DNA of 64,000 nt from a virus. The notes beneath the pieces were generated by a model. The model saw only the letters and a list, made by a program, of their open reading frames with translations, was not told the DNA's origin and did no database searches. Position 1 is the stretch's first letter, and each line of letters starts with the position of its first letter. Both the position numbers and the translations under genes were made by a program. This document shows, piece after piece, positions 13,270 through 54,276 of this stretch. Location of the stretch: positions 32,001 through 96,000 of the IMG/VR virus record IMGVR_UViG_3300017989_000071. The stretch is one strand, 5' to 3'.

Positions 13270-13312
13270 GCGTTTTCCCTTCTAGGCGCAAGGTTCCAAT
13301 CGTCACGCAGGT

Positions 13313-17142: not shown

Positions 17143-19069
17143 CCGGATCGGGACGCTCCTCGATCAGGCCGGGGTCGGGACCGGAAACCTGCACCGTAGG
17201 AACCGCCGACGGTTTCAACGCAGCGGCGGCCTCGGGAGAATTGAGTGCGCTGAATACACAGCCACACAACGCATCGGAAACATCCTTCGATTTCGTCGGC
17301 GGATGATCCACCTTCACCTTCTTCAGGTTTCCGGTAAAGAACCGCTCCAGACTCGATAACTCATCGAGCAGCACATCGTGCTTCGGATACTCGATACGCA
17401 ATTCGAGGATCGCCTGCTTCAGCGTCTCGTAGGGGTCCATCGTCCGGTCCACGCTTTGCAGGGACGTATTAAAACCCTCCTTCGCCAACTTCTGCAACGA
17501 ATGCGCCGATTGAAAACCATCGTAGGTCACAAGTTGAATCGGCAACCCCGAGTCGCGAAGGTAGTGAATGAACTCGATGATCCGGTCGTAGTCGATCTCG
17601 GCATACTGCGTGTTTACAACCCGCGCCACGAAATCGACGTGAACCCGATAATCTCGGGTATCGTACTTATGGCCGTACTGGTCGTACCGTGTCACCGTAC
17701 TTACATCGCTTAGGCAGCAACACGCGATTCCCGCCGCATCGTTGTTCAGCGCAAGGTCCACGTGAATAAACCTCAACGACATCGGGTGGTCACGAACCGC
17801 CCACCGATCCCTCACCTTGTCCCGCAGAACGAATACCTCGTTCCGCTTGAAGTCGAGAATCAAATTATTCTTGTCGTCGTCCGTCCCGAGCAACACCGTC
17901 GGGTGAGTAAACGGATTCTGCCGAACTTCTGAAACGCACCCTTGAATCCGATCCCGCCGATAGATGTACGAATTATACCCGTAGGTCGATACCCCACCGA
18001 TGTCGCGGATCGAACCCTCCAAATCAGACTCGAACAGCGGCCACAACGACACGGGCGGGCAAATCAACTGACAGTCTTCCGGAACCGACTGCGGCTTCCG
18101 TTTGTGCATCGAAGATCGCCGCGTCTGCGAACCGACCACCACATAAAACCGCCGCTCCTTCTTCAAGTCCTCCCGCACATCCCACAGCGAATAATCACTG
18201 ACATGGACATTCGCCTCGCCCTCGTGCTCCCGGCGGTGAGTGGTCAACCACGCCGATTCATCCCTCTTCTGCGACAACAGGCATAGTAAACCTCGGGGTC
18301 CGCCCTTCCCGTGAAAGCGCGAAACGATCCTGCCGCGCACCTCCTTGTAGGTCTCCTGAATCACCGGACCGGCGGCTCCCATCTTCGAGAAATTGGCCTC
18401 GTCCAACAGCCCCCCGTACACCGCCTGACCCAGCGCATGTGTCGCCGTACTCCCGACGGTGAAAACCAGATTCTTCGGAAGCTTTCCGTACCTCGCGTTC
18501 GGATGTCGTGTCATAATCCGCTTGAAGTACCGAGACCGCTGCATCGTCTCGCGTATCCGATGAAACGCCACCGAATCGGACAGGCGAATCGTGATATTGA
18601 AAAGTATAATTGCGATCTGGGTGTCCGGAGTAAGACCGAACATGTGCTGAGGATTGCGGATCATCGTCAGAGAATAGATTTTGTAGAGCTGCGCCACCAC
18701 CGCCGCCGTGGTCTTCCCGGTTCCAATCGCACCCTCGATGATCCACTCGCGGATGTCGTTCGCCGGGTCGCACACGTAGCGCAGCTCATCTCGCCAGATC
18801 GGCCAGATGTCGTCACGCATCCCCATATAATCGTCGCTCTCGATAAAAGTGTCGATGTCAACCGGCTTCGTTTCGTAGTCCTCCTCCCACGTGCTCGCCA
18901 GTAAGGGAGAATGCGCCTTCTCCTTCAACTCTTGTATGATATTGAGGATCAACTCACGCTCGGGGCGGGAGTACACGTCCAACACAGCAAGGTTCCCCCG
19001 CTCCAGCTCATCCCATATCGAGCGGATTCCAAGAGCAGTGTCCGGACTGAATTGCGCAGGAGCGAACAT
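17102..19069 (-). CDS. terL: terminase large subunit
   Basis: Walker A GAIGTGKT, Walker B LLDEAN, nuclease IHVDLA, VTYDGFQS, DHPPTKSKDVSDA. Confidence 0.92.
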   Translation of the reverse strand: MFAPAQFSPDTALGIRSIWDELERGNLAVLDVYSRPERELILNIIQELKEKAHSPLLASTWEEDYETKPVDIDTFIESDDYMGMRDDIWPIWRDELRYVCDPANDIREWIIEGAIGTGKTTAAVVAQLYKIYSLTMIRNPQHMFGLTPDTQIAIILFNITIRLSDSVAFHRIRETMQRSRYFKRIMTRHPNARYGKLPKNLVFTVGSTATHALGQAVYGGLLDEANFSKMGAAGPVIQETYKEVRGRIVSRFHGKGGPRGLLCLLSQKRDESAWLTTHRREHEGEANVHVSDYSLWDVREDLKKERRFYVVVGSQTRRSSMHKRKPQSVPEDCQLICPPVSLWPLFESDLEGSIRDIGGVSTYGYNSYIYRRDRIQGCVSEVRQNPFTHPTVLLGTDDDKNNLILDFKRNEVFVLRDKVRDRWAVRDHPMSLRFIHVDLALNNDAAGIACCCLSDVSTVTRYDQYGHKYDTRDYRVHVDFVARVVNTQYAEIDYDRIIEFIHYLRDSGLPIQLVTYDGFQSAHSLQKLAKEGFNTSLQSVDRTMDPYETLKQAILELRIEYPKHDVLLDELSSLERFFTGNLKKVKVDHPPTKSKDVSDALCGCVFSALNSPEAAAALKPSAVPTVQVSGPDPGLIEERPDPVVGQLQEVFSGQN

Positions 19070-24300: not shown

Positions 24301-24679
24301 GATCCCGTATCGTCTGCGTCGGAATCACCCGATCCCGCATAAACGACAGGGTATGAATCCCCGCGTTCTCGTTGTAGACCTCGTGATTGCCGAGCAGCAG
24401 ACTGAAGTCACCGGCAGCTCCGCCCGCAACCAGCGCAACGTGCTCGCGGAAGATCATCTCCGCGACGTGCTGCGATTGCGGGTCCACGTGATCGTGGGTG
24501 TGGTAGTAGTCCCCCAACCCGATAACTAGATCGGGCTGCTCCTCGCGAATCACCTCGTGGACCCAACGGAAGATTGCCATGATCTCGTGAAGATGCGTCG
24601 TCAGCCCATCCGTTGTCGGAGACGAAAAAGCGTTATGGGGATAAATGTGGGGGTCAGCCCACAGTAATAGTTTCTTCAT
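21359..24679 (-). CDS. fused SbcD-SbcC (Mre11-Rad50; gp47-gp46-like) nuclease/ATPase
   Basis: ADPH, GLGDYYH, GNHE, AGHYH; Walker A NGSGKS; Zn hook CPTC; signature CSSGE; Walker B VCDEID. Confidence 0.92.
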   Translation of the reverse strand: MKKLLLWADPHIYPHNAFSSPTTDGLTTHLHEIMAIFRWVHEVIREEQPDLVIGLGDYYHTHDHVDPQSQHVAEMIFREHVALVAGGAAGDFSLLLGNHEVYNENAGIHTLSFMRDRVIPTQTIRDRILYMPHTNDIEGAVMAANARADEYDLVMMHLPLNGALRHLGIPEVNGIDPHSFPDGKHIFAGHYHRPCQVVATPECYARVVGSITTRTFTDSENAGIERGIDIVEWEERGPVKVRRIPGPHHSKYETVHVRTEEERYALDMIEDKKRTFVKVYYYNNYPIETLEGTLAKFKRAILAPGVSQDKRKKGDEEGDQYGFDVNIEEEAIQYLTDAKWRDEETVEIVKGIIKAGEDTTGDVQHSNIRFDSVRMEGFMSFKDGAYFHLRDRGLVLIEGVNQDDPGAMSNGSGKSTLIEALFWCLYDRTLRGLSKADVGWRNGRSKRASGCMVEVEFHIDDDHYLVRRSRKHKTYKTGLTIEKNGDDSITPRLAADAQIELLRILGVTHDALQHLSIMTQGLSHRFIDLNDGDRKKLIESILGLDALDRMSDLARDRKRKTAVEMGSASAEVEVRDEEVDRVTKKWKAAEEEIGDLDSKRREVEALAERKKTIEHNRSEFEGRVEEARKELEAKRGEVNRLREEHAEVHRKEVERLRGLASDLRKREEEYRLEYGPLSKREEELKAEIETHKQVQRELDVTENDLQERAGDLRLRIHGLREEVVRIETANKALAERQEKARKMIEGGKCPTCFQPLNEAHDLHREAGLTEDAEKPQTTEQLDAEVERIKRDVESTEQEIARNNAAWKEEEQAIQTIKDRIKVEVVEPRENLDEKVKAAQKLISQADKSVRDAENTAEEGSDRLAEAMEEVSGAEAALDQLGRLVKDCASRIAEIGEEEQSIRESIRSAESRMEHLKEEVREAHKRRCKAGDRKRVAEVEEKRSQIVAGLFSPTGIRARLLSGAVEFLNVRLAEYSDVLIGKDAVVIHSQTELKDKTTTDKITVELTSGKSYLACSSGERRRADLVVQLALNALARVSTGLTTNILVCDEIDDKLDRTGMEALADVLRMKADEGLSVFLVTQHSFLRGLVPDRVSVVKSNGVSALAA

Positions 24680-24947
24680 CGTGTGTGTCTCCTTCTACCC
24701 GAACAATCGGAACGGACGGGGGAGCATCAATCGAATACTTAACCCGCGCACCGCTTATCCGGTAGAACGTAATCCGTACAGGACCGAGCTCGATGACCGA
24801 TCCTTGAAAAAGCGTCAGGCGCATCCCGGCATAATCGACAACGACCCTCCGGTTCTCCGCGCTCAAAAACTTCAGGTAGTGCCTCCCGACCCGAACAGCG
24901 CATCCGGTCCTCCCCGTCAACCCAAGCCTACCCCGTCCGTCGTTCAT
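24654..24947 (-). CDS. CsrA-like protein (apparently tandem)
   Basis: GSVIELGPVRITFYRISGARVKYSIDAPPSVPIVRVE resembles the CsrA fold; start at ATGA overlap. Confidence 0.5.
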   Translation of the reverse strand: MNDGRGRLGLTGRTGCAVRVGRHYLKFLSAENRRVVVDYAGMRLTLFQGSVIELGPVRITFYRISGARVKYSIDAPPSVPIVRVEGDTHDEETITVG

Positions 24948-27101: not shown

Positions 27102-27572
27102 CTATACGCTTTGTGACATCCCCTTCATTTCGGCGCGGGCGTTGTTCGACAACTGCTCCGCTGAACGCAATCGGGAACGGATCGCCCACGACAGCTGACT
27201 GATAAACTCGTGCGCCACGTGGAACCGATCCGCCCGCTCATCCAACCCGGCAAACTCGGGATCGTTCCGTGCCGCTGTATCCACCCGCCATTGAGGATTC
27301 TTGTCGTGACGGCTACCGGCATTCGTAAAGACGATCTGATGATAGGCCAAGTCCGCCGCCCGACGAGCTTTGCGCGACATCCACAGATACTTCCCGAGGA
27401 GGTATCCCATCATCGCTTCCATCTCTCCCTGCTTTCGGAACGCCTCATCGAGGTTGTCTCCGATATAGATGTCGTCGATAAGCTGTAAGACAATTTCCCG
27501 GTCCTCTTCGAGCAGGGCGGGAATCGCCTCTTCCTCCATTAGTTTAGATTTCAACAAATCCCCGTAATTCAT
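27102..27572 (-). CDS. UvsY-like recombination mediator
   Basis: Helical, VDTAARNDPEF...AIRSRLRSAEQLS pattern; lies between polymerase and SSB. Confidence 0.48.
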   Translation of the reverse strand: MNYGDLLKSKLMEEEAIPALLEEDREIVLQLIDDIYIGDNLDEAFRKQGEMEAMMGYLLGKYLWMSRKARRAADLAYHQIVFTNAGSRHDKNPQWRVDTAARNDPEFAGLDERADRFHVAHEFISQLSWAIRSRLRSAEQLSNNARAEMKGMSQSV

Positions 27573-30500
27573 GCGGCCTCCGCTGTTTTCGGGTGCAGCC
27601 GAGGAGTGAAGCGGTACTCGTCGATGAACTCTACATTCTCCTCGAACTCGGGAATCTCGCACTCGACGATCAACTTCTCCTCGGTATGCAGATATGTAAA
27701 CTCGACATCGCAGGGCCAGCCCCGCATCACATCGAGCACCTTCTTCATATTTGACGACACGTCGTGCTCGCACTTCAGGCGCAAGCCACGGCGACCGTCG
27801 GACAGCAGCTCCGCATCAACCATCTCGCCCCACGAGGTTCCAACCTCGAAGTCGATCTCCAGCGGAACCGTCAAGTGCTCCTTGAACCGCTCGACCAAAT
27901 CGTCAACCATGCAGCGGGACGCCAGCTCGATGTAGTCAACCACCTCGGAGCCGGGGCAGTCCGCCTCGAACGAATCGTGAATGAAGCCCCAAATCACTGT
28001 CCACATATCCTCTCCCCGAACCGCATCGAAGAGCATCTGCAACGCCAGTGTCGCCCAATCGCTCGATCCCCCCTGAATTGGGGTATTCATTGCCTGACGC
28101 TCAGCCGACGACCGTTTGTATTGGTTCTTACTATAAATGTCCGGAAGCAGCCGACGCGACCCGAGGCTGGTCCACACCGCACCGTGCTCTTTCAGAATCG
28201 CGGACTGCTTGTCCCACAACTCCCTCAGCCCCGGAAACTCCCGGAAGATACCCTCTTGGAAAAGCTTGGCCTCTTCAAGAGTAATCCCGTACATGTCCGC
28301 GATCCCCGGTGGACCCGCCCCGTACATCGTCCCGAAATTGGCTGCCTTCGCACCGCGCCGCTCATCGCCCGTTACCGCCTCCAGAGCCTTCTTCAGAATC
28401 CGGGCCGCCGACGTGCGGTGAATGTCCAGACCGATCAGGAAGATTTCCATCATGTTCGCGTCGCCGGACAACCGGCAGCCGTCACGCAACTCCATCTGGC
28501 CGTAATCGACAACGACGAGCAGTCCGCCCTTGAAGCGGGTCTTGTAAACACTCTTCGCACCGCCGCGAAACGGGATCGTCTGGATCGGGGGGTCGTTCGC
28601 CGACCACCGCCCTGTACCTGTCGTCCGCACACCCCAATTCGCGTGAGCGCATCCGTCGTATCCGGTCAGGTCGGGAAGTGGCTTTAGGTAGCTCGAATAA
28701 TTCTTGCCGACCTTCTTCCACAGCAACAACTTCTCCAGCATCTCGGCGCAACGCTCGCAGAACTCCTTCACCTCGGGATCGTCGGACTTTTTCCCCCGGT
28801 CCCGAATCCAAACCTCCATCCGGGAAAGCACATCCTTCTCGGTGCTACCCTGCAACACCCGACCGTCGGGCTGGCGGAAATTTCTCCGGGTCAACGAATT
28901 TTTCGGGTCGGCGGTCTTGTCGGTAAAATGATTTCCCATATAAGGAAGACCGAGAACGCCGTGGATCAGGAAATTCAAACTGACCCACGACCCCAATCCG
29001 AGCTTGTAGTTGTACTGCTCCTCCACCGCTGCGTCGTAACCCTCATCCCGAAACCAATCCCGAATCTCGGTCAACTCCTCTACCGCCGCGTCCGCGACTT
29101 CCTTGTTTCGTTCAAGATCGACATACACCCCGGAAACGCGCATCCACAGCGCAAAGGTGTGGCTGTTCATCGTCAGCATCTCGAAAGGTTCGAGCAGATT
29201 CTCCTCCTCCAGCAGCTCCCGCTGAATCGGAACCAGACGTGCCGTAGAGATCGCATCGAAGCAGGCATACTCGACGAAGATTTCATACTCTACATCCTCG
29301 TAAGGATCAGCCCCCTTCGGCAGCTCCGCTTGCGCCTCGTGCATCCGCTCCTTCGGATGCAGCATACCCGCCCATCGCGTCGCCATGTAATCCAAATCGT
29401 GAGGCTCGGTGTCGTTCGTCAGGGACCAACCGGCCAGCATCGTATCGTGGAACAAACCGGGAGCTAGACCGCGCCCCCTCCACATCGGTATCCACACCTT
29501 CGTCCGGGCAACGAACGCCGTCTGATCGTACTGGAAATTCTGACCGGCGACAGGCACCGTCCGGAATAAACGGGTGAGGTGGTGGTCGATAGCTTGTCGG
29601 GATAGAGCATCGTTGGCGAACGGAGATAACTTATGCTGATACGGAATATAGAGCGGAACCGAGTCGGTATGCGCCTCGACTCCCCCGCCCGCCTTACCCC
29701 CGCAAACTGTCACGCACAGCATCTTCCACGTTGGGTGAAAGATTTCCAGACCTCCATCCTCGCCCTTACTCGTTGCCTCGATGTCCACCGCAACGAAGTC
29801 GATCTCGCCCTTGGCGTACCGCTCCAGATACGTGTCCACTGCCGCCTCGACCTTACCGAGCGTGTCTCCGTGGTTGATCCCCAGATCGGTCTTCTCCCCC
29901 GACACGCGGCGTCGAACCATCGCCAAGTCTTCGAGGATCATCTGCTCGTACTGCACATTCCCCCGGAGAACCGCCGAGGGATGAATCGTTGGAATGACCG
30001 TGTAGGAATGGGTGATCCCGTCGAGCTCGAACGTCAGGTCCATCTTCCGACCGTGAACCGTTGTAATCTTCTGCTTCGATCCGGTCAGCCCGTTCAACGA
30101 AACCCCGCCAACCGCAACGATCACTTCGGGATCGTGCTTAACGATCTCCCGCAACACGTAAGGCCGACACGCGCTGATCTCGCTCGGCGACGGCTTCGGG
30201 TTACTCCGCACACCCAGCGGGCAGCAGCGGACCACGTTCGAGAAGCGGACCCACTCCAGCGGTATCTCTGAATCCGCCAGATATTCCCGCAACTTCTTCC
30301 CCGCCGGGCCGACGAACGGCTCCCCTTCGCGGTCCTCTACCTGACCCGGAGCCTCCCCAATCAGCATGACCTTCGGCTTCTCCGCGCCCGATCCGTACAT
30401 CTTGATCGTCGTCGCCCCCTCGGACAACGAACACCGCTCGCACGGTCCGGGCGTCAGGTCCGGTATTTCGTCGCCGGAGCAGAAGGAGCACAAATAGGAC

Positions 30501-30661
30501 TCGTCGCGGACATCTCCGTCGAGAGGAAAAAGAAGCGGATGGGATTCGATGTAGGCCATGCAGTCCGCACAGCCGATATGGACCATCCCATCCTCGGGAA
30601 ACGGCAGGACGTTCTTTCGGCGGTCCTTCTTCGCTGCCTTCTTTTTCTTCGGTTTCGCCAT
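27569..30661 (-). CDS. family A DNA polymerase with N-terminal family-4 uracil-DNA glycosylase domain
   Basis: UDG: GEAPG, FVGPAG, NVVRCCP, HPSAVLR; exonuclease VDIEA/NFQYD/YACFD; polymerase DYGQMELR, RRGAKAANFGTMYG, IHDS. Confidence 0.95.
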   Translation of the reverse strand: MAKPKKKKAAKKDRRKNVLPFPEDGMVHIGCADCMAYIESHPLLFPLDGDVRDESYLCSFCSGDEIPDLTPGPCERCSLSEGATTIKMYGSGAEKPKVMLIGEAPGQVEDREGEPFVGPAGKKLREYLADSEIPLEWVRFSNVVRCCPLGVRSNPKPSPSEISACRPYVLREIVKHDPEVIVAVGGVSLNGLTGSKQKITTVHGRKMDLTFELDGITHSYTVIPTIHPSAVLRGNVQYEQMILEDLAMVRRRVSGEKTDLGINHGDTLGKVEAAVDTYLERYAKGEIDFVAVDIEATSKGEDGGLEIFHPTWKMLCVTVCGGKAGGGVEAHTDSVPLYIPYQHKLSPFANDALSRQAIDHHLTRLFRTVPVAGQNFQYDQTAFVARTKVWIPMWRGRGLAPGLFHDTMLAGWSLTNDTEPHDLDYMATRWAGMLHPKERMHEAQAELPKGADPYEDVEYEIFVEYACFDAISTARLVPIQRELLEEENLLEPFEMLTMNSHTFALWMRVSGVYVDLERNKEVADAAVEELTEIRDWFRDEGYDAAVEEQYNYKLGLGSWVSLNFLIHGVLGLPYMGNHFTDKTADPKNSLTRRNFRQPDGRVLQGSTEKDVLSRMEVWIRDRGKKSDDPEVKEFCERCAEMLEKLLLWKKVGKNYSSYLKPLPDLTGYDGCAHANWGVRTTGTGRWSANDPPIQTIPFRGGAKSVYKTRFKGGLLVVVDYGQMELRDGCRLSGDANMMEIFLIGLDIHRTSAARILKKALEAVTGDERRGAKAANFGTMYGAGPPGIADMYGITLEEAKLFQEGIFREFPGLRELWDKQSAILKEHGAVWTSLGSRRLLPDIYSKNQYKRSSAERQAMNTPIQGGSSDWATLALQMLFDAVRGEDMWTVIWGFIHDSFEADCPGSEVVDYIELASRCMVDDLVERFKEHLTVPLEIDFEVGTSWGEMVDAELLSDGRRGLRLKCEHDVSSNMKKVLDVMRGWPCDVEFTYLHTEEKLIVECEIPEFEENVEFIDEYRFTPRLHPKTAEAA

Positions 30662-31656
30662 TAGATCACCTGCCGTTGCATCAACTCAATCCCTGTTCGG
30701 AACGGATCGTAGTCAATCGCCTGATCGAGGTGCCGCTGCATCTCGGGTCCGAGGGATGAGGGGTCTTCGTTTTGGGGGAGAGTAACGAGACGGGCTTCGC
30801 GTTCGTGGGAGAAGAGAAACTGACAAATCTCGATGGATTGCTGCAACGCATCGGGATCGAGGGCCACAGAAAACTTAACATGTTTACCTAGTTGAAGAAG
30901 CATGTCGTACTGCTCCGCGCTGGCCCTGCTTCCGAGAATCGCCACCCCGTTCTTCCCGGTCGAGATCGCATCGAACACCCCTTCCGTTATCACCACGTGA
31001 TCGAACTTCGCCCGGCGCACCCGGTCGTAGTTGTAAACCCATCTCGATTTCCGGCTGTCGATTGGGAACTCGTACTTCCGATACTGACGAGGATTCCGGT
31101 TGACGAGATCGAGCATTTCGAGGGTGTAGGCCCGCGCCACCCAAATCCGCAGCTCGTCCTCCCCCAACACCCGCTCGTAGTCCGGGCAAACGATTCGGCC
31201 CCGGAGATCGCCCAGCCCGTCACCGAGGCCGTACCACTCCGCAATCTCCGGGGTCACCCCGCGCTTCGCGAGGTAGAATCGAATCTCCCCTTCCCAGCGA
31301 ATCGGTCGAATCATCTCCGGCTCCGGGCAGTACGCCGGTCCGCTCTCCTCCTCCTCCTCGGCGAGCTGGCCGAAACGCAGCGTCCGGATCGTCCGCGCCA
31401 TCGAGTCCTCCCAACCGACCAGTGAAGGCTTATCCGGGTCTACCCCGATCAGGAAATACAGATAAGTCAACGTCCCCGCCGCCTTACAGCGTTGACAGAT
31501 AAACATGCGCTTCCGGGTGTTGTAGTAGAGATGGTACTTCGTATCGGGCGACTTCTTCCCGTTCCGTAGACAGACCGGGCAGCAGAAACGAACTTCGTTT
31601 CTCGGGGCATTCAGCGGCGTCCCGAGACGACCAATTAGATTCGCCGGGACTACCAT
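30661..31656 (-). CDS. DNA primase (Zn finger plus TOPRIM)
   Basis: CPVC...CQRC; VITEGVFDA; VALDPD. Confidence 0.85.
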   Translation of the reverse strand: MVVPANLIGRLGTPLNAPRNEVRFCCPVCLRNGKKSPDTKYHLYYNTRKRMFICQRCKAAGTLTYLYFLIGVDPDKPSLVGWEDSMARTIRTLRFGQLAEEEEESGPAYCPEPEMIRPIRWEGEIRFYLAKRGVTPEIAEWYGLGDGLGDLRGRIVCPDYERVLGEDELRIWVARAYTLEMLDLVNRNPRQYRKYEFPIDSRKSRWVYNYDRVRRAKFDHVVITEGVFDAISTGKNGVAILGSRASAEQYDMLLQLGKHVKFSVALDPDALQQSIEICQFLFSHEREARLVTLPQNEDPSSLGPEMQRHLDQAIDYDPFRTGIELMQRQVI

Positions 31657-31703
31657 CGCTCACCTGTTTGTATCATGCAAGGTTCCGTGTCTTCCGTAAC
31701 ACA

Positions 31704-31745
31704 GGCGACCCACCGCCGAACGAGGAGTAAGTACGATGGGCCGCC
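31704..31745 (-). ncRNA. leader stem-loop displaying anti-RBS CUCCUCGUUC (candidate antisense RNA)
   Basis: 12-bp stem GGCGGCCCAUCG/CGGUGGGUCGCC (two G.U pairs that work only on the minus strand) and 18-nt loop UACUUACUCCUCGUUCGG. Confidence 0.6.
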
Positions 31746-31763
31746 CCACAAAAGGTAAGACCG

Positions 31764-31792
31764 ATAATACCTCGGTCGTTAGGGGTTGTCAA
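31764..31792 (-). promoter_or_regulatory. sigma70-type promoter of primase/polymerase operon
   Basis: TTGACA-17 nt-TATTAT. Confidence 0.7.
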
Positions 31793-32286
31793 GCGAAATC
31801 TTCCTCCTTCTGAGAAATCGCCACGAAGCGGTTATCCCCGAGAATCCAGCCGATCCCTCCCTTAACGGTGGACCAGTCCAGCTCCCCAGCACCGCATCCG
31901 GGCCGGGGCAGCCAAACCTCGTCGTATTCCTCCCACACCCGGAGAACCTTCACCTTCTCGACGAGCTGTTTGGCACTACGGATAATCAGGTCCATATCGG
32001 AAGGGAGTCGCCACTCGTATTTGGTTGGAAAACTGAATAAATCGGCTTTCCGGGAGGGGTGGGGTCCGTAAACACCGCGTAGGTCGTGGACGACGTTACC
32101 CACTGAAGAGATCATCCCCCCAAGAACGCGGTCGATGCCGGGATACCGTTCGGCGGCTGCTCGCGCACACCCCCGGCCCATCACCGCCGTCCCGTCCGAG
32201 TGGATTTCGCCGTTCGTCGTAATGCACCGCAGAACGATCTGCCCCTCGGGTGGAACGGACCAAAGATCGGTTGCTCGCTCACGCAT
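31789..32286 (-). CDS. DarG/TARG1-like macrodomain (ADP-ribose glycohydrolase)
   Basis: TTNG...VMGRGCA, FSFPTKYEWR, LPRPGCGAGELDWSTVK. Confidence 0.82.
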   Translation of the reverse strand: MRERATDLWSVPPEGQIVLRCITTNGEIHSDGTAVMGRGCARAAAERYPGIDRVLGGMISSVGNVVHDLRGVYGPHPSRKADLFSFPTKYEWRLPSDMDLIIRSAKQLVEKVKVLRVWEEYDEVWLPRPGCGAGELDWSTVKGGIGWILGDNRFVAISQKEEDFA

Positions 32287-33265: not shown

Positions 33266-33279
33266 GTTATTCTCCTCGT

Positions 33280-33684
33280 TCAGTACGGTTCGCATTCCCA
33301 GAGCAGGGTCTCGAAGGCCGTATCGCCCACGAGCTCCTTCAGCTCCTTCGTTTGGTTCTCGGTCGCTTCGTACCGGCGGACGGAATCTTCCCGATCATCC
33401 CACGGGTCGAAGCCCAGATCGTCACACCACTCCTCGAAGGAGCTGGCGTTCTCGATAGTCACCGCATCGAGAGCAAGGCACGACAAAACATCCGCCGCCT
33501 CGGGGGAGCGTTTCCACCCAGTCCCCGTGCTGAAGTGGATGGTCATAGACTCCCGCGACCCTTCTCCCCCGGAGACGGTCACCGTGTAATGGTTCCCCGC
33601 TCCCGGCCAGAAGGGATTCACCTCATCGGTCCGGTCAGCCTCGACCTTGATACCGTGTTGTTCGATAAAGTCTTGAATCGTCAT
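33280..33684 (-). CDS. conserved hypothetical early protein
   Basis: MTIQDF...DVLSCLALDA...FEEWCDDLGFD; own promoter. Confidence 0.65.
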   Translation of the reverse strand: MTIQDFIEQHGIKVEADRTDEVNPFWPGAGNHYTVTVSGGEGSRESMTIHFSTGTGWKRSPEAADVLSCLALDAVTIENASSFEEWCDDLGFDPWDDREDSVRRYEATENQTKELKELVGDTAFETLLWECEPY

Positions 33685-33709
33685 GTCGTTGTCCTCGTTC
33701 ATGTAGCGT

Positions 33710-33738
33710 ATGATAATATCTTTCGAGTACGTTGTCAA
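33710..33738 (-). promoter_or_regulatory. early promoter, shared class
   Basis: TTGACA-ACGTACTCGAAAGATAT-TATCAT. Confidence 0.8.
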
Positions 33739-34957: not shown

Positions 34958-34992
34958 TTTATTCTCCTCGTTCGTTTGTCAGTCTCAATCGT

Positions 34993-35021
34993 ATTATATT
35001 ACCTTTCGAGTACGATGTCAA
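34993..35021 (-). promoter_or_regulatory. early promoter, shared class
   Basis: TTGACA-TCGTACTCGAAAGGTAA-TATAAT. Confidence 0.85.
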
Positions 35022-35100: not shown

Positions 35101-35141
35101 TCGGGCCGGTGAGAGCGGAAGAGGAAGTTGACCCCCACCGG

Positions 35142-36470
35142 CTATTCTGCCTCGCCCTCGTCCTTGCGCGTCGCATCTTCGAGAATCGAGGCCCGTTTGT
35201 AATCGGAGCGCGTATACACGCGGTACTGGCTCTCTGCGCGACGGAACTTGTCAACCCAGATGTATTCTTTATTTACTGTAAGAATTATGTCGGCCTTGTT
35301 TGTCTTCTGCGAACTGTTGGCGACGTTGAACTGGCTGAGCTGCACCTTCCTCGGATTTCCGTACAAGGTCTTGCGGCTGATCTGACTCGGAGCGATCACG
35401 ACCGCCTTGACCTCCTTCGCCAAGTCCATCAAGGAATCGTAAATCTCCCCCATCGTCGAATACATCTGCTCCCCGGTCCCGCCGCGAAGCTGATCGGGAT
35501 AGTCCACGACAACCATCGAAGGGGAGACATTGTACCGGGCCATCGCCGCCGTCACGTGAGATCGTATCTGCCCGAAGCGCGTCTTCCCCGGCGGAAACTC
35601 CTTGACCAATATCTGCTTCGACCCCAGACCCATCTCCTTGAACCGCTGCTCGTAGAGGGCAGACCCCTTCACGATCTCGTGCATCGCCACCCCCGACAAT
35701 TTCGAGGCATAACGCAGCAGCACATCGTGCTCGTTCAGATCGCCAATCGTGTAATGGAAGACCACCCCGTTACGCCGTGCCTCGAAAGCCGCGAGGTTCA
35801 CGGCCAGCATCGACTTCCCGCCACCGCTGAACCCGAGGATCACGACCAGCTCGCCCTTACCGAATCCTCCGTAGGATCGCTCGTTCAATGTGGGAAACGG
35901 AGTCAATACCCGGCCATCCGGGTTGTAGGAAGTCTGCCGCAGAATCTCCGGAAGGTCGGCCCCCACCTCGGACATCCGCGTCCCGATATTCGCCACGTCG
36001 TCCCCGACCCGACTCGCCGTCTGCAACCATTCGAGATAATCCGAAGCGTGGCTCCGCTCCTCGGGGGGCAGCATCAGCTCTTCGGCAATCCGGGCGACCG
36101 CCTCCCTCTCGGCGCAGTCCTTGGCGAACTGGATAACCTGCGTGCGGATATAGACTTCGTCGGTCAGGTCCGCTTTCGTGTAAGCGTAGTCGATCTCCTT
36201 GATCGCCCCCTCGATACTCTCGTTCGGCAACCCGTGCTGCCTTGCCCAACTCTCCAGCGCGACAACCATGCTGTCCCGCGTCGGAACCTGCCCGTGCTCG
36301 TCGTAGTGGTTGAGCGCGATACGAGCAAGGGGGACCAGCAGATCGTGCGCAAAATAGGCCGAGTCGATTGCATCGCGAAAGTGGACGAGAAACATCGGAT
36401 CGCGGACGATCAGGGCAAATATCTTGCGCTGGAATCCGAGACCGAACGGGTATTTTCCATGCCCCTCCAT
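35142..36470 (-). CDS. DnaB-like replicative helicase
   Basis: GELVVILGFSGGGKS, MVVVDYPD, APSQ, ADIILTVN; start re-called at MEGHGK. Confidence 0.87.
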   Translation of the reverse strand: MEGHGKYPFGLGFQRKIFALIVRDPMFLVHFRDAIDSAYFAHDLLVPLARIALNHYDEHGQVPTRDSMVVALESWARQHGLPNESIEGAIKEIDYAYTKADLTDEVYIRTQVIQFAKDCAEREAVARIAEELMLPPEERSHASDYLEWLQTASRVGDDVANIGTRMSEVGADLPEILRQTSYNPDGRVLTPFPTLNERSYGGFGKGELVVILGFSGGGKSMLAVNLAAFEARRNGVVFHYTIGDLNEHDVLLRYASKLSGVAMHEIVKGSALYEQRFKEMGLGSKQILVKEFPPGKTRFGQIRSHVTAAMARYNVSPSMVVVDYPDQLRGGTGEQMYSTMGEIYDSLMDLAKEVKAVVIAPSQISRKTLYGNPRKVQLSQFNVANSSQKTNKADIILTVNKEYIWVDKFRRAESQYRVYTRSDYKRASILEDATRKDEGEAE

Positions 36471-39675: not shown

Positions 39676-41243
39676 TTCTCCCGTCTCCACCTCTTGCTGA
39701 CCTCTATTGGAACATTCATCGAGACACCCGTTACAGGTTCCACTTTCAGTTGCGCATCGCGATAGGTCTTCAACCGCTTCAACGACTGAGAGCGGAGAAC
39801 CCAATGCGTATTGTCTACGAAGTCGATAACGATGCAACGGTTACCAATCGAACTGCCTTCCTTCAGTCTCATCCCACGTCCGAGTCGCTGGAGGAGCTGG
39901 CGAGGGTGTTTTCCTCCCGCCGCATAGACAATCACATTGATGCCGGAGATGTCAACACCTTCATCGAGGAAGGGGGTGGCGATGGAGATCGAATTTTCGT
40001 TTATATGATTAACTAATTTTTCGAGCTCCCATTTTTCCTTGTGGATCGTTCCGTAGGAATTGACCAACACCTCCTTTGCCCCCTTGCACATGATCGCATC
40101 CTCGTACCCCTCGTCGATGAAGTGCTGGAGGAGCCGCCGACCGTGACGTTCGTGCTGGACGAAGATCACGACCGAGCAACCTTTGTCGTAGAAATTCTTC
40201 GCGGCGGATACGATAGCGAGGTTGCGGAGATGGTTCGAGCGGACCCCCTGCTCGTAGAGGATATGCCAGTCGCGGATTCCGGCAGCGAGCTTCAACGGCA
40301 CCTCGCCGGGGAGGGGAAGGTTGATCGCATCGATCTGGTAGGGGCGGATCACCGGCTCGGCGAGGATACCCCGCTGGATCAAAACCCACGAGGGCATCCG
40401 GTAGATGATCGGCCCGGTCATTCCCATGACCTGTAGCTCCTCCACGGTCGGGTTGTCCATATCGGCAAAGGGGGTGGCGGATAGTCCAAATCGGTATCCG
40501 GCGGGGCACAGCAGGCCCGCCTCACCCCACCCCGGAGCTTTCAGGTGGTGGGCCTCGTCCCAAATCACCCCGTTCTGGCGGCTCAGGAGGGCCGTGACAG
40601 CCTTCGAGCCTCGTTTGAGGCCCACGGTAAGGGTTCGGTCGATTGCGACCGTCACAGGGCGATCTGACTGCTTCAGACCCCCTCCGTAGCCCCCAATCTC
40701 CTCCTCGGAGAACCCCCGATCCCGGAATCGACCGAGGGTTTGATGGAGCAGTCGGTCGGTATTGACCACAAGGAGGACGTTGAAGGTCGGATATTGGATG
40801 AGATACCAGCGGACCATCGCAATCGCGATCTCCGTCTTCCCGGCCCCGGTTCCGGCCTGAATAATCCCTCGGCCCCGAGCGAGGGCCGTCTTGATCGCCC
40901 GGACCTGATAATCCCGCAGCGTCACCCCGGCGAGCTCCGGAACCTCGATCTGCCGGTAGTCGTTCGTCGGATCGTAATCCGGATGGTCCGGGTGCGGAGT
41001 CATTCGGACCTCGATCTTCTTCTCCTTCAGCAGCCGCTTCATCCGGGGGACCAGCCCCGACTGAAACCGTCCCTCGTCGTCGATCACGCAGACCTCGACC
41101 TTCTCCGGCTGCTTACCTCGCTCCTTCTGGACGAAGACGATGCCGGTGAATGCCTTCTCGGCCTGTTTGATCCCGCGCTGGGTGCCCCCCGTGATCCGGG
41201 AGAGCACCGGGCCGTACTCGACCTCGATCCAATCAATTCGCAT
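39672..41243 (-). CDS. UvsW-like SF2 helicase
   Basis: LRDYQ, GTGAGKT, IWDEAHH, GLSATP, DEGVDISG, QRLGRGMR. Confidence 0.9.
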   Translation of the reverse strand: MRIDWIEVEYGPVLSRITGGTQRGIKQAEKAFTGIVFVQKERGKQPEKVEVCVIDDEGRFQSGLVPRMKRLLKEKKIEVRMTPHPDHPDYDPTNDYRQIEVPELAGVTLRDYQVRAIKTALARGRGIIQAGTGAGKTEIAIAMVRWYLIQYPTFNVLLVVNTDRLLHQTLGRFRDRGFSEEEIGGYGGGLKQSDRPVTVAIDRTLTVGLKRGSKAVTALLSRQNGVIWDEAHHLKAPGWGEAGLLCPAGYRFGLSATPFADMDNPTVEELQVMGMTGPIIYRMPSWVLIQRGILAEPVIRPYQIDAINLPLPGEVPLKLAAGIRDWHILYEQGVRSNHLRNLAIVSAAKNFYDKGCSVVIFVQHERHGRRLLQHFIDEGYEDAIMCKGAKEVLVNSYGTIHKEKWELEKLVNHINENSISIATPFLDEGVDISGINVIVYAAGGKHPRQLLQRLGRGMRLKEGSSIGNRCIVIDFVDNTHWVLRSQSLKRLKTYRDAQLKVEPVTGVSMNVPIEVSKRWRREN

Positions 41244-42225
41244 TGGACACCTTCGCTTTCACCTCCTGAGCGAGCATGGTCGCACCGACAACCGCCCCCT
41301 GCTTCACATCGTCCCGGTGAGCCATCAGGATCGCCGAAACGAGCTGGAGCTTCGAGAGGAAGTTAGCCGCCACATCGCGGGCCTCCTCTTCGTACTCCCC
41401 TTTGTTGGACAGCAGATCGGACACCTGAGCCGGAGAAATCCCCGTTTCCGCATCGGCACCTATGATCTCGTTGATGGCCGTGTGCGCCTCGTTCAGGAGC
41501 TTGGCGGTAACAACCCCCAAGTCGTAGACCAGCTTGGCCCGTGTTACGTCGTCCGCCACATCGTCGATCCTCGACTCGTCAACCATCAGGTTCTCGTCGC
41601 ACGGGAGCGGCACGTGTACCGGAACATGGTTGCCGCCGGGGCAGATAATGTAGATGTAGGGGCTGGCCCCGTCCTTCGTCCTTGCCACCCCGAGCTGTCC
41701 CCCTTCAAGCAGCCCGTCAATCTGTTTGTGAACCTCTTCCCAAATTGCATCGGCGACCTCTTCCTCGCTGAGCACGCGGTCGTCCGATTCGTTCGTGGAA
41801 GAATCCTCCCCCTCCGACGAGGAGTGCAAGGTTCCGGAGGGAGAGGTAGAAGAACGCTTCGCCGCCTGTTGGGCGGTTTTATTCATGTAGTAACGATCCT
41901 TGTTGATCCAGACCCGACCGTCGCGGGCGAGGTAGTGGATGCCCTTGGCGTCCCGCCCGTAGTAAGTCGCCCCGTAGGACACGATCTCGATCTCGATTCC
42001 CCACAAACCCAGCCCGTGATCCGGCGTACCGGGAGCCTGCCAGAACAAGCCCTTCAGCCGTACCGCCTTCTTCGGGATTTTTCCAGCCTTCGTTTGGTTG
42101 AACGGCACTCGGCGGTAGAAGTGGGCGTAGCTTCCCCCGTCCTCATGGGTTTCCCACATGACGATGATGGAGGGGGCTTCGTTGAAGCGGTCCCCCCGGA
42201 ACGTAGTGTGTTTGGTAAAGGCCAT
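41233..42225 (-). CDS. two-domain hypothetical early protein
   Basis: ATG behind GAACGAGGAG; Ser-rich linker containing an RNA hairpin. Confidence 0.6.
   Translation of the reverse strand: MAFTKHTTFRGDRFNEAPSIIVMWETHEDGGSYAHFYRRVPFNQTKAGKIPKKAVRLKGLFWQAPGTPDHGLGLWGIEIEIVSYGATYYGRDAKGIHYLARDGRVWINKDRYYMNKTAQQAAKRSSTSPSGTLHSSSEGEDSSTNESDDRVLSEEEVADAIWEEVHKQIDGLLEGGQLGVARTKDGASPYIYIICPGGNHVPVHVPLPCDENLMVDESRIDDVADDVTRAKLVYDLGVVTAKLLNEAHTAINEIIGADAETGISPAQVSDLLSNKGEYEEEARDVAANFLSKLQLVSAILMAHRDDVKQGAVVGATMLAQEVKAKVSNAN
41806..41845 (-). ncRNA. intragenic stem-loop with 18-nt dual-motif loop
   Basis: 11-bp stem CUCUCCCUCCG/CGGAGGGGGAG; loop GAACCUUGCACUCCUCGU. Confidence 0.5.
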
Positions 42226-42239
42226 TGTTCTCTCCTCGT

Positions 42240-42695
42240 TCAGGAAGTCAGGGCGTTGGCCGGACGTTGCTCGGCTTTTTCCAATTCCCGGATCGCGCTC
42301 CGTTGCAGATCGGGGACGTAGCAATTCTCGTAGGGGTCCGTCGGATCGTCGTAGATGCACATTCCGATGGAGTCCGCGTGTTCCCACTCCCCGGTAAACG
42401 GATCGAGGTACAGGGCGACCACAAACCAGCAGCCAAACCGCTCGATCCATTCCTCGATTTCCTTCCGCTCCTCTTCCGGACTTACCCGGCGACCGTAGCC
42501 GTTGACGTACCCTTCCGGCTCGCCGTAGATCGACCAGTAGTTTTCGCATTCGGGGTCGGCGACGATCTTGACCCGGCCTTCCGCTTCGAGCTCCTCGAAG
42601 CGAGCGAGGGTCTTGGCGTTGCGGAGTGCCCACACCGCTTGGTCCCACCCGTACTCCCGAAAGTTGCGGTAGTATTTTTCGATTTTCGGATTCAT
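42240..42695 (-). CDS. hypothetical early protein
   Basis: GAGCGAGGAG RBS; EWEHADSIG motif. Confidence 0.6.
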   Translation of the reverse strand: MNPKIEKYYRNFREYGWDQAVWALRNAKTLARFEELEAEGRVKIVADPECENYWSIYGEPEGYVNGYGRRVSPEEERKEIEEWIERFGCWFVVALYLDPFTGEWEHADSIGMCIYDDPTDPYENCYVPDLQRSAIRELEKAEQRPANALTS

Positions 42696-42720
42696 CGTTC
42701 TCTCCTCGCTCGTTGCTGTA

Positions 42721-44091: not shown

Positions 44092-44116
44092 CTCGTTCTC
44101 CTCGTTCTTCATTGTC

Positions 44117-44152
44117 AATCATATTATAATATCATTCGAGTACGTTGTCAAG
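44117..44152 (-). repeat. 36-nt exact direct repeat (promoter unit), copy 1
   Basis: aatcatattataatatcattcgagtacgttgtcaag, identical to 45398-45433. Confidence 0.9.
44123..44151 (-). promoter_or_regulatory. early promoter, shared class
   Basis: TTGACA-ACGTACTCGAATGATAT-TATAAT. Confidence 0.88.
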
Positions 44153-44710: not shown

Positions 44711-44762
44711 GATGTTCTCCTCGTTCTTCGGTTATCGTTTTGCCCCCGGACCGGCGCGGCGG

Positions 44763-45368: not shown

Positions 45369-45397
45369 GTTATTCTCCTCGTTCTTCGTTATCGTCT

Positions 45398-45433
45398 AAT
45401 CATATTATAATATCATTCGAGTACGTTGTCAAG
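45398..45433 (-). repeat. 36-nt exact direct repeat containing early promoter 45404-45432, copy 2
   Basis: Identical to 44117-44152. Confidence 0.9.
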
Positions 45434-46605: not shown

Positions 46606-46628
46606 GTCGTTCTCCTCGTTCAAATTGT

Positions 46629-46877: not shown

Positions 46878-46906
46878 TCTCCTCGTTCGTTGTCATTGCT
46901 AATCGT

Positions 46907-46935
46907 ATGATAATACCTTTCGAGTACGATGTCAA
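46907..46935 (-). promoter_or_regulatory. early promoter, shared class
   Basis: TTGACA-TCGTACTCGAAAGGTAT-TATCAT. Confidence 0.82.
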
Positions 46936-47598: not shown

Positions 47599-47632
47599 TT
47601 TTGTCTCCTCGTTCAGGTTGACAGGTACTCGT

Positions 47633-47661
47633 ATTATACCACGATTCGAGTACGATGTCAA
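47633..47661 (-). promoter_or_regulatory. early promoter, shared class, within an inverted repeat
   Basis: TTGACA-TCGTACTCGAATCGTGG-TATAAT; downstream CGAGTACCTGTCAA is its near mirror. Confidence 0.85.
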
Positions 47662-47664
47662 GCT

Positions 47665-47746
47665 AAAAAAAAAAGCCCGCCGACTTTGGGGAGCCGACGG
47701 GCTTTGTCTGTTCGTGCGGATGGGGTCCGCACCGGAACCTTGCACC
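47665..47746 (-). ncRNA. candidate small RNA of about 80 nt (promoter-seed-hairpin-terminator)
   Basis: 5' GGUGCAAGGUUCCG, hairpin GUGCGGA-CCCCA-UCCGCAC, terminator GCCCGUCGGCU-CCCCAA-AGUCGGCGGGC-U10; no AUG. Confidence 0.72.
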
Positions 47747-47750
47747 GAAT

Positions 47751-47779
47751 ATGATAATCCGATGCGTTTTCGTTGTCAA
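47751..47779 (-). promoter_or_regulatory. sigma70-type promoter of the candidate sRNA
   Basis: TTGACA-17 nt-TATCAT. Confidence 0.78.
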
Positions 47780-53100: not shown

Positions 53101-53498
53101 TCGGCGGAACCCGGACCGGGAGGTACATTCCGGGGGATACTCGGAGCTGGGGGATTATTCGGCTTCCCTTTTCCGTTCTTCCGCTTCTTCCTCGGAACGA
53201 CAATCGGTGCGTTCTTCGACATCTCGTAGGTCGCCTGAGAGGACTGCGCCCCACTGACGACTGCCATGTAAACGCACACCCACTCTACCCACGTCGGGGG
53301 ATGGACCATTGCCGTTGCCACCCCGCCGACTACCAACCCAACGATGGTCGGCAGGTAGTAGTTGAGCTTCTTGTTATCCACGAAGGCACGGATGATCGCC
53401 GTCACCTTCGGTGTGAGGAAGTACATGAACCCCATCGCCGAGGCCATCAAGACCCCGATATTATCCATGACGTTCTGGATGGATGTCGGCTCAGCCAT
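53097..53498 (-). CDS. holin-like membrane protein
   Basis: Three hydrophobic segments, basic C-terminal tail; between endolysin and spanins. Confidence 0.68.
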   Translation of the reverse strand: MAEPTSIQNVMDNIGVLMASAMGFMYFLTPKVTAIIRAFVDNKKLNYYLPTIVGLVVGGVATAMVHPPTWVEWVCVYMAVVSGAQSSQATYEMSKNAPIVVPRKKRKNGKGKPNNPPAPSIPRNVPPGPGSAE

Positions 53499-54276
53499 TG
53501 TCGTTCTCCCTGATCTTCGAGAGCTCATGGGCGAGGGACGATTGCGTCTTCGTCGTGAACTCCCCGAGGGGCGAGATTCCCTTCTCGCTCTGATACCGGT
53601 ACAAGGCCCGCTTTGACAGCGGCCCCCAAATCCCGTCGATTTCTCCGGTGTAGTAGCCGAGGCGTTTCAACCCCTCCTGATACCACCGGAGCATACTGTG
53701 CTCTCCATTATCCGGTTCGGGGGTTCTTCGCACCGCGTCGATAATTCGTTGGAGGGTGTATCCCGGACACGCCGGTTTACCGAAGTGGTAGTGACCGTAG
53801 AGATCGCTCGGACCGAAGCCAAACACGTTGAGCAAAACCTTCCAGAGCTGAAGTCCGGAGATGATCTGATCGGTACTCGGCTCGCCGATGTTTTTCCCCG
53901 AGACACCCCGACCGGCGAAAAGTCCCTCGAACATCACCGAGATAAATTCCGCGTTCTCGTCGCCCGGCCTCTCCTTCGTTCCCTGCGACCACGGCTTCGC
54001 TTCGAGATCGTTGCAGAGCAGGACTTCCCCATCACGGCGAATCGCAAAGGTATAGGCAATGGACGGCAGACCGCCGGGGAGGAGATGATTATCGGGGCCG
54101 ATGTGGTAGCGGGCCACGTCCTCCACGGTTCCCCATCCCAACGCCTGATGCCACACTACCCCCTTGAGCTGAAATAAATCCCGCCGGTCCCACGTTGCCC
54201 CCTCCTTGGAGGGCAACAGGGAACGGGCATCCGTTATTCCGGCCTGAAGAATCTGGTCTTGTTTTTCGCTGGACAT
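53491..54276 (-). CDS. endolysin: N-acetylmuramoyl-L-alanine amidase plus PG-binding domain
   Basis: VVWHQ, YTFAIRRDG, YGHYHFGKPACPG; GYYTGEIDGIWGPLS..AL..YQ. Confidence 0.88.
   Translation of the reverse strand: MSSEKQDQILQAGITDARSLLPSKEGATWDRRDLFQLKGVVWHQALGWGTVEDVARYHIGPDNHLLPGGLPSIAYTFAIRRDGEVLLCNDLEAKPWSQGTKERPGDENAEFISVMFEGLFAGRGVSGKNIGEPSTDQIISGLQLWKVLLNVFGFGPSDLYGHYHFGKPACPGYTLQRIIDAVRRTPEPDNGEHSMLRWYQEGLKRLGYYTGEIDGIWGPLSKRALYRYQSEKGISPLGEFTTKTQSSLAHELSKIRENDNG

Follow-up and report, generated by a model that had tools for sequence, protein, structure and literature searches.

The DNA analyzed here is a 64,000-nt stretch (the window) that makes up bases 32001 to 96000 of a 117.6-kb virus record (117,644 nt, 59% G+C). 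A simple codon-based gene call placed 150 of its 154 genes on the minus strand. The site of interest is a 132-nt gap (31657 to 31788 of the window) which separates a 165-aa gene from a 331-aa gene whose product has distant homologues that are named DNA primase or carry PF08275. Located 3' of this primase gene are genes for a 1030-aa UDG-PolA fusion, a 5'-3' exonuclease, a borderline CsrA-like protein of 97 aa (domain score of 25.9 bits, below the Pfam cut-off of 27 bits), and an SbcC-like ATPase. The features found in and around the gap were as follows.

31764 to 31792, minus strand: sigma-70-type promoter of the primase/polymerase operon; -35 TTGACA at 31792 to 31787, -10 TATTAT at 31769 to 31764, 17-nt spacer
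31703 to 31746, minus strand: hairpin 1, the subject of this analysis; 5' arm 31746 to 31733, loop 31732 to 31717, 3' arm 31716 to 31703
31718 to 31727, minus strand: anti-RBS 10-mer CUCCUCGUUC, inside the hairpin 1 loop; exact complement of GAACGAGGAG
31685 to 31704, minus strand: leader hairpin 2; stem of 5 to 7 bp, loop ACGGAA (A-N-GGA type motif)
31676 to 31687, minus strand: CGGAACCUUGCA, 12-nt complement of the 5' end of a putative small RNA, 20 nt upstream of the primase start codon
31654 to 31665, minus strand: primase RBS AGGUGAG (31665 to 31659) and start codon (31656 to 31654); the RBS is not complementary to the hairpin 1 loop

The promoter agrees with the consensus at 11 of 12 positions and is predicted to start the transcript at about 31756 to 31762. 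Its spacer does not contain CGTACTCGAA, the motif present in six early-cassette promoters described below. Hairpin 1 has a 14-bp stem (31746 to 31733 paired with 31716 to 31703) with a 12-bp core (31745 to 31704), and four of the pairs are G.U, two of them in the core. The minus-strand RNA had a folding energy of -27.2 kcal/mol (z of -4.13), which none of 200 shuffles equaled, while the plus-strand RNA of the same stretch reached only -15.0 kcal/mol (z of -1.9). Since the G.U pairs and the energy are both strand specific, hairpin 1 is best regarded as an RNA-level feature of the minus-strand leader. It was predicted in all folds, whichever transcript start or 3' end was assumed. The loop of 16 to 18 nt contains CUCCUCGUUC, 8 of whose 10 bases are at least 98% unpaired according to ensemble prediction, and opening this motif within the hairpin costs +1.8 kcal/mol. 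On these folding results, hairpin 1 is taken to be a real structural element of the primase/DNA-polymerase operon leader RNA, and an anti-Shine-Dalgarno (anti-SD) motif is predicted to be exposed in its loop, as in RNAs of the RNAIII, Rsa, and 6C types. The promoter, the 12-bp stem with two G.U pairs valid only on the minus strand, and the loop of about 18 nt exposing an anti-RBS had all been described in an earlier reading of the sequence alone (the sequence-only reading), and each was recovered here, with the stem now extended to 14 bp.

The T4-type hairpins that sequester an RBS in cis (genes e, soc, 49, and I-TevI) take up the SD or AUG of their own gene into the helix. Hairpin 1, unlike these, excludes the primase SD. 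In alternative leader folds the primase RBS may instead be paired; its predicted partner, which varies with the 5' end chosen for the transcript, is either the first bases of the leader or the small-RNA site. Hairpin 1 was also considered as an intrinsic terminator and rejected: the sequence past 31703 is GUGUUACGG, and the hairpin was missing from the terminator scan.

The complement of the loop motif, GAACGAGGAG, was found 10 times in the window versus 0.33 times expected, and no shuffle gave 10. Nine of them, all on the minus strand and within 33 to 48 kb, precede a start codon by 6 to 7 nt, and the tenth is the complement of the loop itself, on the plus strand at 31718 to 31727. The whole genome contains an eleventh exact copy, which falls in a coding region outside the window (window-scale coordinate 81746). 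The nine RBSs and two variants are listed below.

33272 to 33281, minus strand: early RBS GAACGAGGAG of a 233-aa gene with a GTG start at 33265
33691 to 33700, minus strand: variant RBS GAACGAGGAC, a 9/10 match, behind the cassette promoter at 33738 to 33710
34964 to 34973, minus strand: early RBS GAACGAGGAG of ardC, behind the cassette promoter at 35021 to 34993
42232 to 42241, minus strand: early RBS GAACGAGGAG of a 330-aa ORFan that holds a second hairpin
42702 to 42711, minus strand: variant RBS GAGCGAGGAG, with pairing to the loop kept via G.U
44098 to 44107, minus strand: early RBS GAACGAGGAG, behind the cassette promoter at 44151 to 44123
44717 to 44726, minus strand: early RBS GAACGAGGAG of a 163-aa gene
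45375 to 45384, minus strand: early RBS GAACGAGGAG, behind the cassette promoter at 45432 to 45404
46612 to 46621, minus strand: early RBS GAACGAGGAG of a 273-aa gene
46879 to 46888, minus strand: early RBS GAACGAGGAG, behind the cassette promoter at 46935 to 46907
47605 to 47614, minus strand: early RBS GAACGAGGAG, behind the cassette promoter at 47661 to 47633

All nine exact copies lie where the sequence-only reading had placed the extended RBS of nine early genes, and the two near-matches that it had named, at 42702 (G.U compatible) and 33691/33692, are both RBSs. Six of the tagged genes are headed by near-identical units comprising a terminator, a sigma-70 promoter, and the RBS, with (A/T)CGTACTCGAA in the promoter spacer. 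The loop matches the cassettes over precisely the invariant 10-mer and no further, and the 40-nt flanks on each side of the loop copy are unlike the early cassettes.

Within the region of the tagged genes there are also a putative small-RNA unit and a further hairpin built like hairpin 1.

41805 to 41846, minus strand: second anti-RBS hairpin, within gene 41233-42225 (the 330-aa ORFan); 13-bp stem, loop of 16 to 18 nt
47665 to 47779, minus strand: putative small-RNA unit comprising a promoter (47779 to 47751), about 80 nt free of ORFs, a hairpin, and a terminator with a U10 run; 5' end GUGCAAGGUUCCGG

The second hairpin has a predicted energy of -24.1 kcal/mol (z of -4.3). Its loop carries ACUCCUCGU at 41825 to 41817, a 9-mer identical to part of the leader loop, and immediately ahead of this 9-mer is CCGGAACCUUGCAC (41837 to 41824), a 14-nt exact complement of the small RNA 5' end. 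In the leader, the corresponding 12-nt complement follows the anti-RBS after 31 nt. The motif targeted by the putative small RNA, GGAACCUUGC, has five copies on the sense strand versus 0.13 expected, three of which are 17 to 20 nt ahead of the starts of the primase, a DinG-type helicase, and an amidase. The anti-RBS and GGAACCUUGC are no more than 50 nt apart at both hairpins and occur in opposite order; because they co-occur in this way, function is favored over duplication. CUCCUC has 28 copies on the sense strand versus 159 on the antisense strand, and the two copies predicted to be the most unpaired are those of the leader loop and of 41819 to 41824. We counted a hairpin as strong and large-looped if its stem ran for 12 bp or more without interruption and its loop had 12 nt or more. 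The genome has 14 of these, with loops totaling 247 of 117,644 nt, and CUCCUC is in the loop of three of the 14 versus 0.06 expected (p = 3e-5). Judged from these motifs, hairpin 1 is a member of a small set of candidate modules in this genome that combine an anti-RBS with a small-RNA site.

Chance might be considered as the origin of the match, in that the expected number of CUCCUCGUUC copies on the sense strand is about 0.15 and many features were inspected. Its placement in a strong hairpin loop, however, multiplies that expectation by about 0.002, and there is a second hairpin of the same design, with the small-RNA motif at both. The leader loop is also the sole sense-strand site complementary to a 10-mer common to at least 5 of 150 start regions. 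We therefore give coincidence hardly any credence; the complementarity is exact and far from chance. Some further candidates were discarded. A third anti-RBS-like site at 54454 (9/10 match) is coding sequence and pairs with itself, and the complements of the loops at 35105 and at genome position 4893 are ordinary Glu-rich coding words which mark no specific RBS class.

The plus-strand copy of the tag was also evaluated as the RBS of a translated micro-ORF, the alternative that the sequence-only reading had named as refuting its proposal.

31736 to 31813, plus strand: rival micro-ORF of 25 codons, with its ATG 8 nt after the plus-strand GAGGAG

Here an ATG stands 8 nt past the exact RBS tag, the chance of an ATG in a 5- to 9-nt window being about 8%, and this ATG was counted against the explanation that we favor below. 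The remaining evidence disfavors a translated ORF. No sigma-70-like plus-strand promoter was found between 31000 and 31718, the codon score was -2.8, and there was no Pfam match. The plus-strand copy has T after GAGGAG and a spacer of 8 nt, compared with A and 6 to 7 nt in nine of nine true RBSs. Moreover, the G.U pairs favor the minus-strand RNA, the strand that carries nearly all called genes (150/154), and the plus strand past the second loop copy has no start codon. Translation of this ORF is thus highly improbable as the reason for the copy.

Another explanation is that the hairpin is a structural 5' element, either an mRNA stabilizer or a processing site, and that the loop is what remains of an early promoter-RBS cassette fragment that became inverted, with no function in pairing. 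The hairpin begins about 10 to 16 nt from the predicted 5' end, the 9-mer CAUCGUACU of its 5' arm is also found in the early-promoter spacer, and T4-type phages are known to shuffle cassettes of promoter, stem-loop, and Shine-Dalgarno sequence via recombination (PMC2839356). Such a relic would not be expected to look as the loop does, however, since the cassette similarity is confined to exactly 10 to 11 nt of the RBS, with the motif perfectly kept and the flanks unrelated. Because the 40-nt flanks show no cassette likeness, the loop copy does not appear to be a recent inverted duplication. The motif is also displayed in a loop, and the same 9-mer recurs in the loop of the second hairpin. We regard a functionless relic as quite unlikely.

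The C/U-rich loops could alternatively be sites for a protein, either ribosomal protein S1 or a phage RNA-binding protein, in which case the RBS match would be a by-product of pyrimidine content. Four of the large-loop hairpins have CCUC-type loops, two of them share CAAC(C/U)UCCUCUUCC, and the borderline CsrA-like gene is situated in the replication cluster. Composition cannot, however, give a 10/10 match that includes GUUC, and CsrA-type proteins bind GGA rather than its complement. A search for homologues of the T4 regulators RegA and RegB gave no match. A protein site with an incidental RBS match is accordingly very unlikely.

The best single explanation, to which we assign a probability a little under one half (about 0.47), is that the hairpin 1 loop represses the tagged early genes by occluding their RBSs. 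In this mechanism, CUCCUCGUUC in the loop would form a 10-bp duplex with the GAACGAGGAG tag of the nine early genes, or of eleven genes if the two variants are included. The duplex would cover the Shine-Dalgarno bases, and ribosomes would therefore be kept off the tagged mRNAs. The pairing would act in trans or, alternatively, in cis on read-through transcripts. Action in cis is possible given the gene order: the tagged genes form two blocks, at 47.6 to 42.2 kb and at 35.0 to 33.3 kb, and each has one of the two anti-RBS hairpins downstream. Since both hairpins of this design adjoin a small-RNA docking site, hairpin 1 looks like one node of a post-transcriptional circuit by which the phage may dampen its early cassette genes. 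The meeting of the RNAs, translational repression by pairing, and the timing are steps that we infer.

The 10-bp duplex between loop and tag has a calculated energy of -16.1 kcal/mol versus -6.6 kcal/mol for GAGGAG with the CUCCUU 16S tail, and opening of the target costs 0.5 to 6.0 kcal/mol; these values comprise short-duplex and opening energies only, duplexfold on long RNAs having given meaningless full-length hybrids. Because the longer duplex outweighs the 16S pairing energy, the extra GAACG would give the loop specificity for tagged genes. The sequence-only reading had remarked that 16S pairing does not require the conserved GAACG. The shared RBS can, however, be explained without the loop, by cassette homogenization or as a site for a protein or nuclease, so that conservation of the GAACG does not by itself point to the loop. 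A 3' context like that of T4 RegB/S1 sites and the CsrA-like gene are other possible causes of tag conservation.

The sequence-only reading had further proposed that the leader silences a whole early regulon once the replication genes are transcribed. The open loop, the non-chance complementarity, and the second hairpin are in keeping with the silencing part of that proposal. The timing part fared less well: as the leader promoter is of the host sigma-70 type, like the early promoters, a delayed shut-off is not evident, and the leader may be made simultaneously with its proposed targets. The T4 late-promoter motif TATAAATA was found on neither strand. As to quantities and geometry, the stoichiometry is unfavorable, with one leader facing nine strong RBSs in competition with ribosomes, and a 10-bp helix within a loop of 16 to 18 nt is sterically tight.

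The direction of control might also be the reverse, with the loop as a receptor through which the early-mRNA RBSs and the small RNA control the translation or stability of the primase/polymerase operon, the early genes not being the target. Early mRNAs should outnumber the leader. The 12-nt small-RNA site is likewise part of the leader, 20 nt ahead of the primase start, and in the alternative leader folds noted above it is this site or the leader 5' end that may pair with the primase RBS. Pairing to the loop would nevertheless keep the 14-bp stem intact, and 60 nt separate the loop from the primase RBS, so that we see no direct way for such pairing to affect primase translation. In addition, the ORFan in which the second hairpin sits is unrelated. 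On this evidence a receptor role is unlikely, and occlusion of the early RBSs remains the reading that we prefer.

Repression of the tagged genes by an exposed loop would have precedents. C-rich loops that occlude Shine-Dalgarno sequences are found in S. aureus RNAIII and the Rsa RNAs (PMC2837412, PMC2790875) and in the actinobacterial 6C RNA (PMC6486639). Like these, hairpin 1 presents an unpaired C/U-rich loop complementary to the SD of several mRNAs, with repression being proposed here. The known examples are stand-alone bacterial small RNAs with short UCCC-type motifs, whereas here a 10-nt exact match is located in a phage mRNA leader and would be directed at the phage's own genes. Hairpin 1 has no Rfam homology to any described anti-SD RNA family. 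Another parallel is the c4 antisense RNA of phages P1 and P7, which is located at the head of an operon and, as summarized in PMC8198154 from Citron and Schuster (1990), blocks downstream genes. The leader resembles c4, so far as that summary describes it, in being a candidate phage antisense RNA co-transcribed at an operon head. By the same account c4 acts on its own transcript (icd/ant), whereas here the operon's own RBS is non-complementary, the proposed targets are in other units, and there is no Rfam match. In the icaR mRNA, a UCCCC-type motif of the 3'-UTR has been shown experimentally to pair with the mRNA's own Shine-Dalgarno sequence and to block initiation (PMC3868564). This resembles the cis, operon-distal version of the mechanism and differs from it in involving a single gene, with 3'-UTR/5'-UTR pairing in one mRNA.

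Two features of T4-type phages bear on the tag itself. PeSL cassettes are units of promoter, stem-loop, and Shine-Dalgarno sequence (PMC2839356, PMC4122927) which are homogenized by recombination (PMC2839356). The six early cassettes fit the PeSL type and hairpin 1 does not, its promoter spacer and flanks being unrelated; PeSLs thus explain the repetition of the tag but not the inverted copy in a hairpin loop. The T4 RegB/S1 cleavage consensus GGAGRAYARAA is found in early RBSs and marks early mRNAs for coordinated shut-off (PMC3014915). The tagged RBSs are similar to these targets in having an A-rich tract after GGAG, as in the GGAGAAUAAAA of ardC. The agent in T4, unlike that proposed here, is a protein nuclease, and RegB and RegA homologues were not detected in this genome. 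If the proposed mechanism is right, it would be a novel form of C-rich-loop anti-SD regulator; the element itself belongs to no described RNA family.

The conservation of the locus was examined in sequence collections. Near-identical DNA was present in sediment and seawater metagenome runs from four studies. Contigs from four DNA runs, which are possibly the source of this DNA, differed from the window by 3 base changes in 17.4 kb, with none in the hairpin. The phage collection gave no DNA match to the window. Relatives of the primase and polymerase in IMG/VR, JGI metagenomes, and a 5.8-billion-protein set were at most 36% identical, and at the primase loci of these distant relatives the gene directly follows another gene, without a comparable leader. 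A scan of IMG/VR with the loop pattern gave no match, and scans with the early-promoter spacer and tagged RBS patterns gave single matches per contig, at chance level. A word-indexed search found no relatives of the 330-aa ORFan or the CsrA-like protein. With Rfam, no family reached its gathering score in the whole window, and 31550 to 31850 gave chance-level miRNA matches only.

A parallel to the arrangement of tag and loop was found in Cluster K mycobacteriophages, in which the start-associated sequence (SAS), a 13-bp asymmetric tag, GGGATAGGAGCCC, precedes the starts of many non-structural genes by 3 to 7 bp (Pope et al. 2011, PMC3203893). The role of the SAS is still termed unknown in PMC11373665 and PMC12699233. 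In Adephagia, 16 SAS are in one orientation, and the single inverted copy (58,682 to 58,694 of the record) is in a non-coding gap between genes 92 and 93. On the sense strand this inverted copy provides a 10-nt loop, CCUCCUAUCC, of a 19-bp (13+6-bp) hairpin with a predicted energy of -47.9 kcal/mol (z of -4.9). The hairpin stretch was found in 144 Cluster K records. An alignment of six phages showed G-C/G-U/A-U changes in the outer 10 pairs, all of which remained canonical, and the loop was preserved. Ekdilam has an unchanged tag, and a 1-nt deletion is the sole difference in its loop. The K3-subcluster phages Pixie and ShedlockHolmes, when aligned, had no anti-SAS loop at the homologous place. 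Since Pixie has listed SAS sites (Pope et al., PMC3203893), the SAS tag appears to be independent of a hairpin at that place, a point that weighs against the occlusion reading. The SAS literature that we searched makes no mention of an antisense hairpin.

The two systems are alike in having an asymmetric, AGGAG-containing tag before many non-structural starts, in one orientation, and one inverted copy away from gene starts, in a hairpin loop. They differ in sequence (GGGATAGGAGCCC versus GAACGAGGAG, which are unrelated), in host lineage, and in phage type, and share no DNA similarity. The Adephagia hairpin is, furthermore, in a non-coding gap at the right end of the genome rather than in an operon leader. 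The phage described here is therefore an analogue of the SAS phages and not a member of that group. The combination of many tagged starts with a single inverted, loop-displayed copy is seen again in an unrelated, growable phage family, which does not prove its function. It is possible, if on balance doubtful, that some phages have a tag/anti-tag system in which early cassette genes carry an extended start tag and its exact complement is displayed in large hairpin loops. In the present phage, with its adjoining small-RNA docking sites, three RNAs would then time the early shut-off, and the same logic would apply to the Cluster K SAS.

The metagenomic phage cannot be grown, and the Adephagia parallel makes the idea testable in culture, in M. 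smegmatis, for which RNA-seq and recombineering have been published. The parallel also yields a specific hypothesis on the function of the SAS, which has been unexplained since 2011 (PMC3203893, PMC11373665, PMC12699233). If the preferred reading is true, an mRNA leader would regulate an entire class of the phage's own early genes by base pairing, and would be an RNA counterpart of T4 RegA/RegB that acts via a private extension of the Shine-Dalgarno sequence.

Six consensus sigma-70-type promoters were located in the early region of the window, as follows.

33710-33738, minus strand, early promoter
34993-35021, minus strand, early promoter
44123-44151, minus strand, early promoter
45404-45432, minus strand, early promoter
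46907-46935, minus strand, early promoter
47633-47661, minus strand, early promoter

The spacer (A/T)CGTACTCGAA was common to all six, each was followed downstream by the tagged RBS (the extended 10-nt ribosome-binding tag), and terminators were found upstream of several. These units resemble the PeSL (promoter/stem-loop/Shine-Dalgarno) cassettes of T4-type phages, forming PeSL-like early cassettes placed ahead of ORFans and ardC. At 35009, 46923, and 47649 the early-promoter spacer opens with CAUCGUACU, a sequence that also occurs in the primase-operon leader hairpin, within its 5' arm and loop (31730-31738); the chance of such a 9-mer match is roughly 5%.

Two other strong hairpins were identified, each directly upstream of a terminator-like U run at an operon end.

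35105-35142, minus strand, strong hairpin
Genome 4893-4948 (window scale -27107..-27052), strong hairpin

Their stems were unrelated, and a loop 14-mer, CAAC(C/U)UCCUCUUCC, was almost identical between them and similar to the 16S rRNA 3' tail. Cluster K mycobacteriophages carry a single inverted copy of their start-codon tag, the start-associated sequence; in Adephagia it was found within a hairpin loop between genes 92 and 93, and this hairpin is conserved.

Adephagia JF704105, 58,639-58,739, plus strand, hairpin with the inverted start-associated sequence

This stretch was found in 144 records, and no mention of the hairpin was found in the literature searched.

An ORF-less unit of about 80 nt comprising a promoter, a hairpin, and a U10 terminator was also found. 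The complement of its 5' end, GGAACCUUGC, had five sense-strand copies versus 0.13 expected.

47665-47779, minus strand, putative small-RNA unit
31676-31687, target site
41824-41837, target site
13288-13297, target site
54292-54301, target site
18987-18996, target site

Three copies precede a start codon by 17 to 20 nt, one each at the primase gene, the gene for a DinG-type helicase (11338-13269), and an amidase gene (53491-54276). The unit thus resembles a small RNA of the phage that would control a limited regulon. A 250-amino-acid ORF with a plausible protein sequence (54089-54841, minus strand) occupies a 434-nt gap left by the gene call and overlaps the amidase gene start by about 190 nt in a different frame.

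In predicted folds of the primase leader (31640-31762, minus strand), the precise 5' end assumed for the transcript decides whether the primase RBS AGGUGAG pairs with the initial bases of the leader (CUUACCUUUUGUG) or with the small-RNA site, and ACGGA, a CsrA-type motif, is displayed in the loop of the second, smaller leader hairpin. In the same operon, DNA polymerase A (27569-30661, minus strand) carries an N-terminal uracil-DNA-glycosylase-superfamily domain (residues 90 to 246).

The replication cluster also encodes a protein with a borderline CsrA domain (25.9 bits against a cutoff of 27; E value of about 1e-5).

24654-24947, minus strand, 97-amino-acid protein

No relatives were found in a word-indexed protein search. 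The protein keeps what we take to be a CsrA-like APxxVxxxRxE stretch, and a role as a translational regulator similar to RegA is possible.
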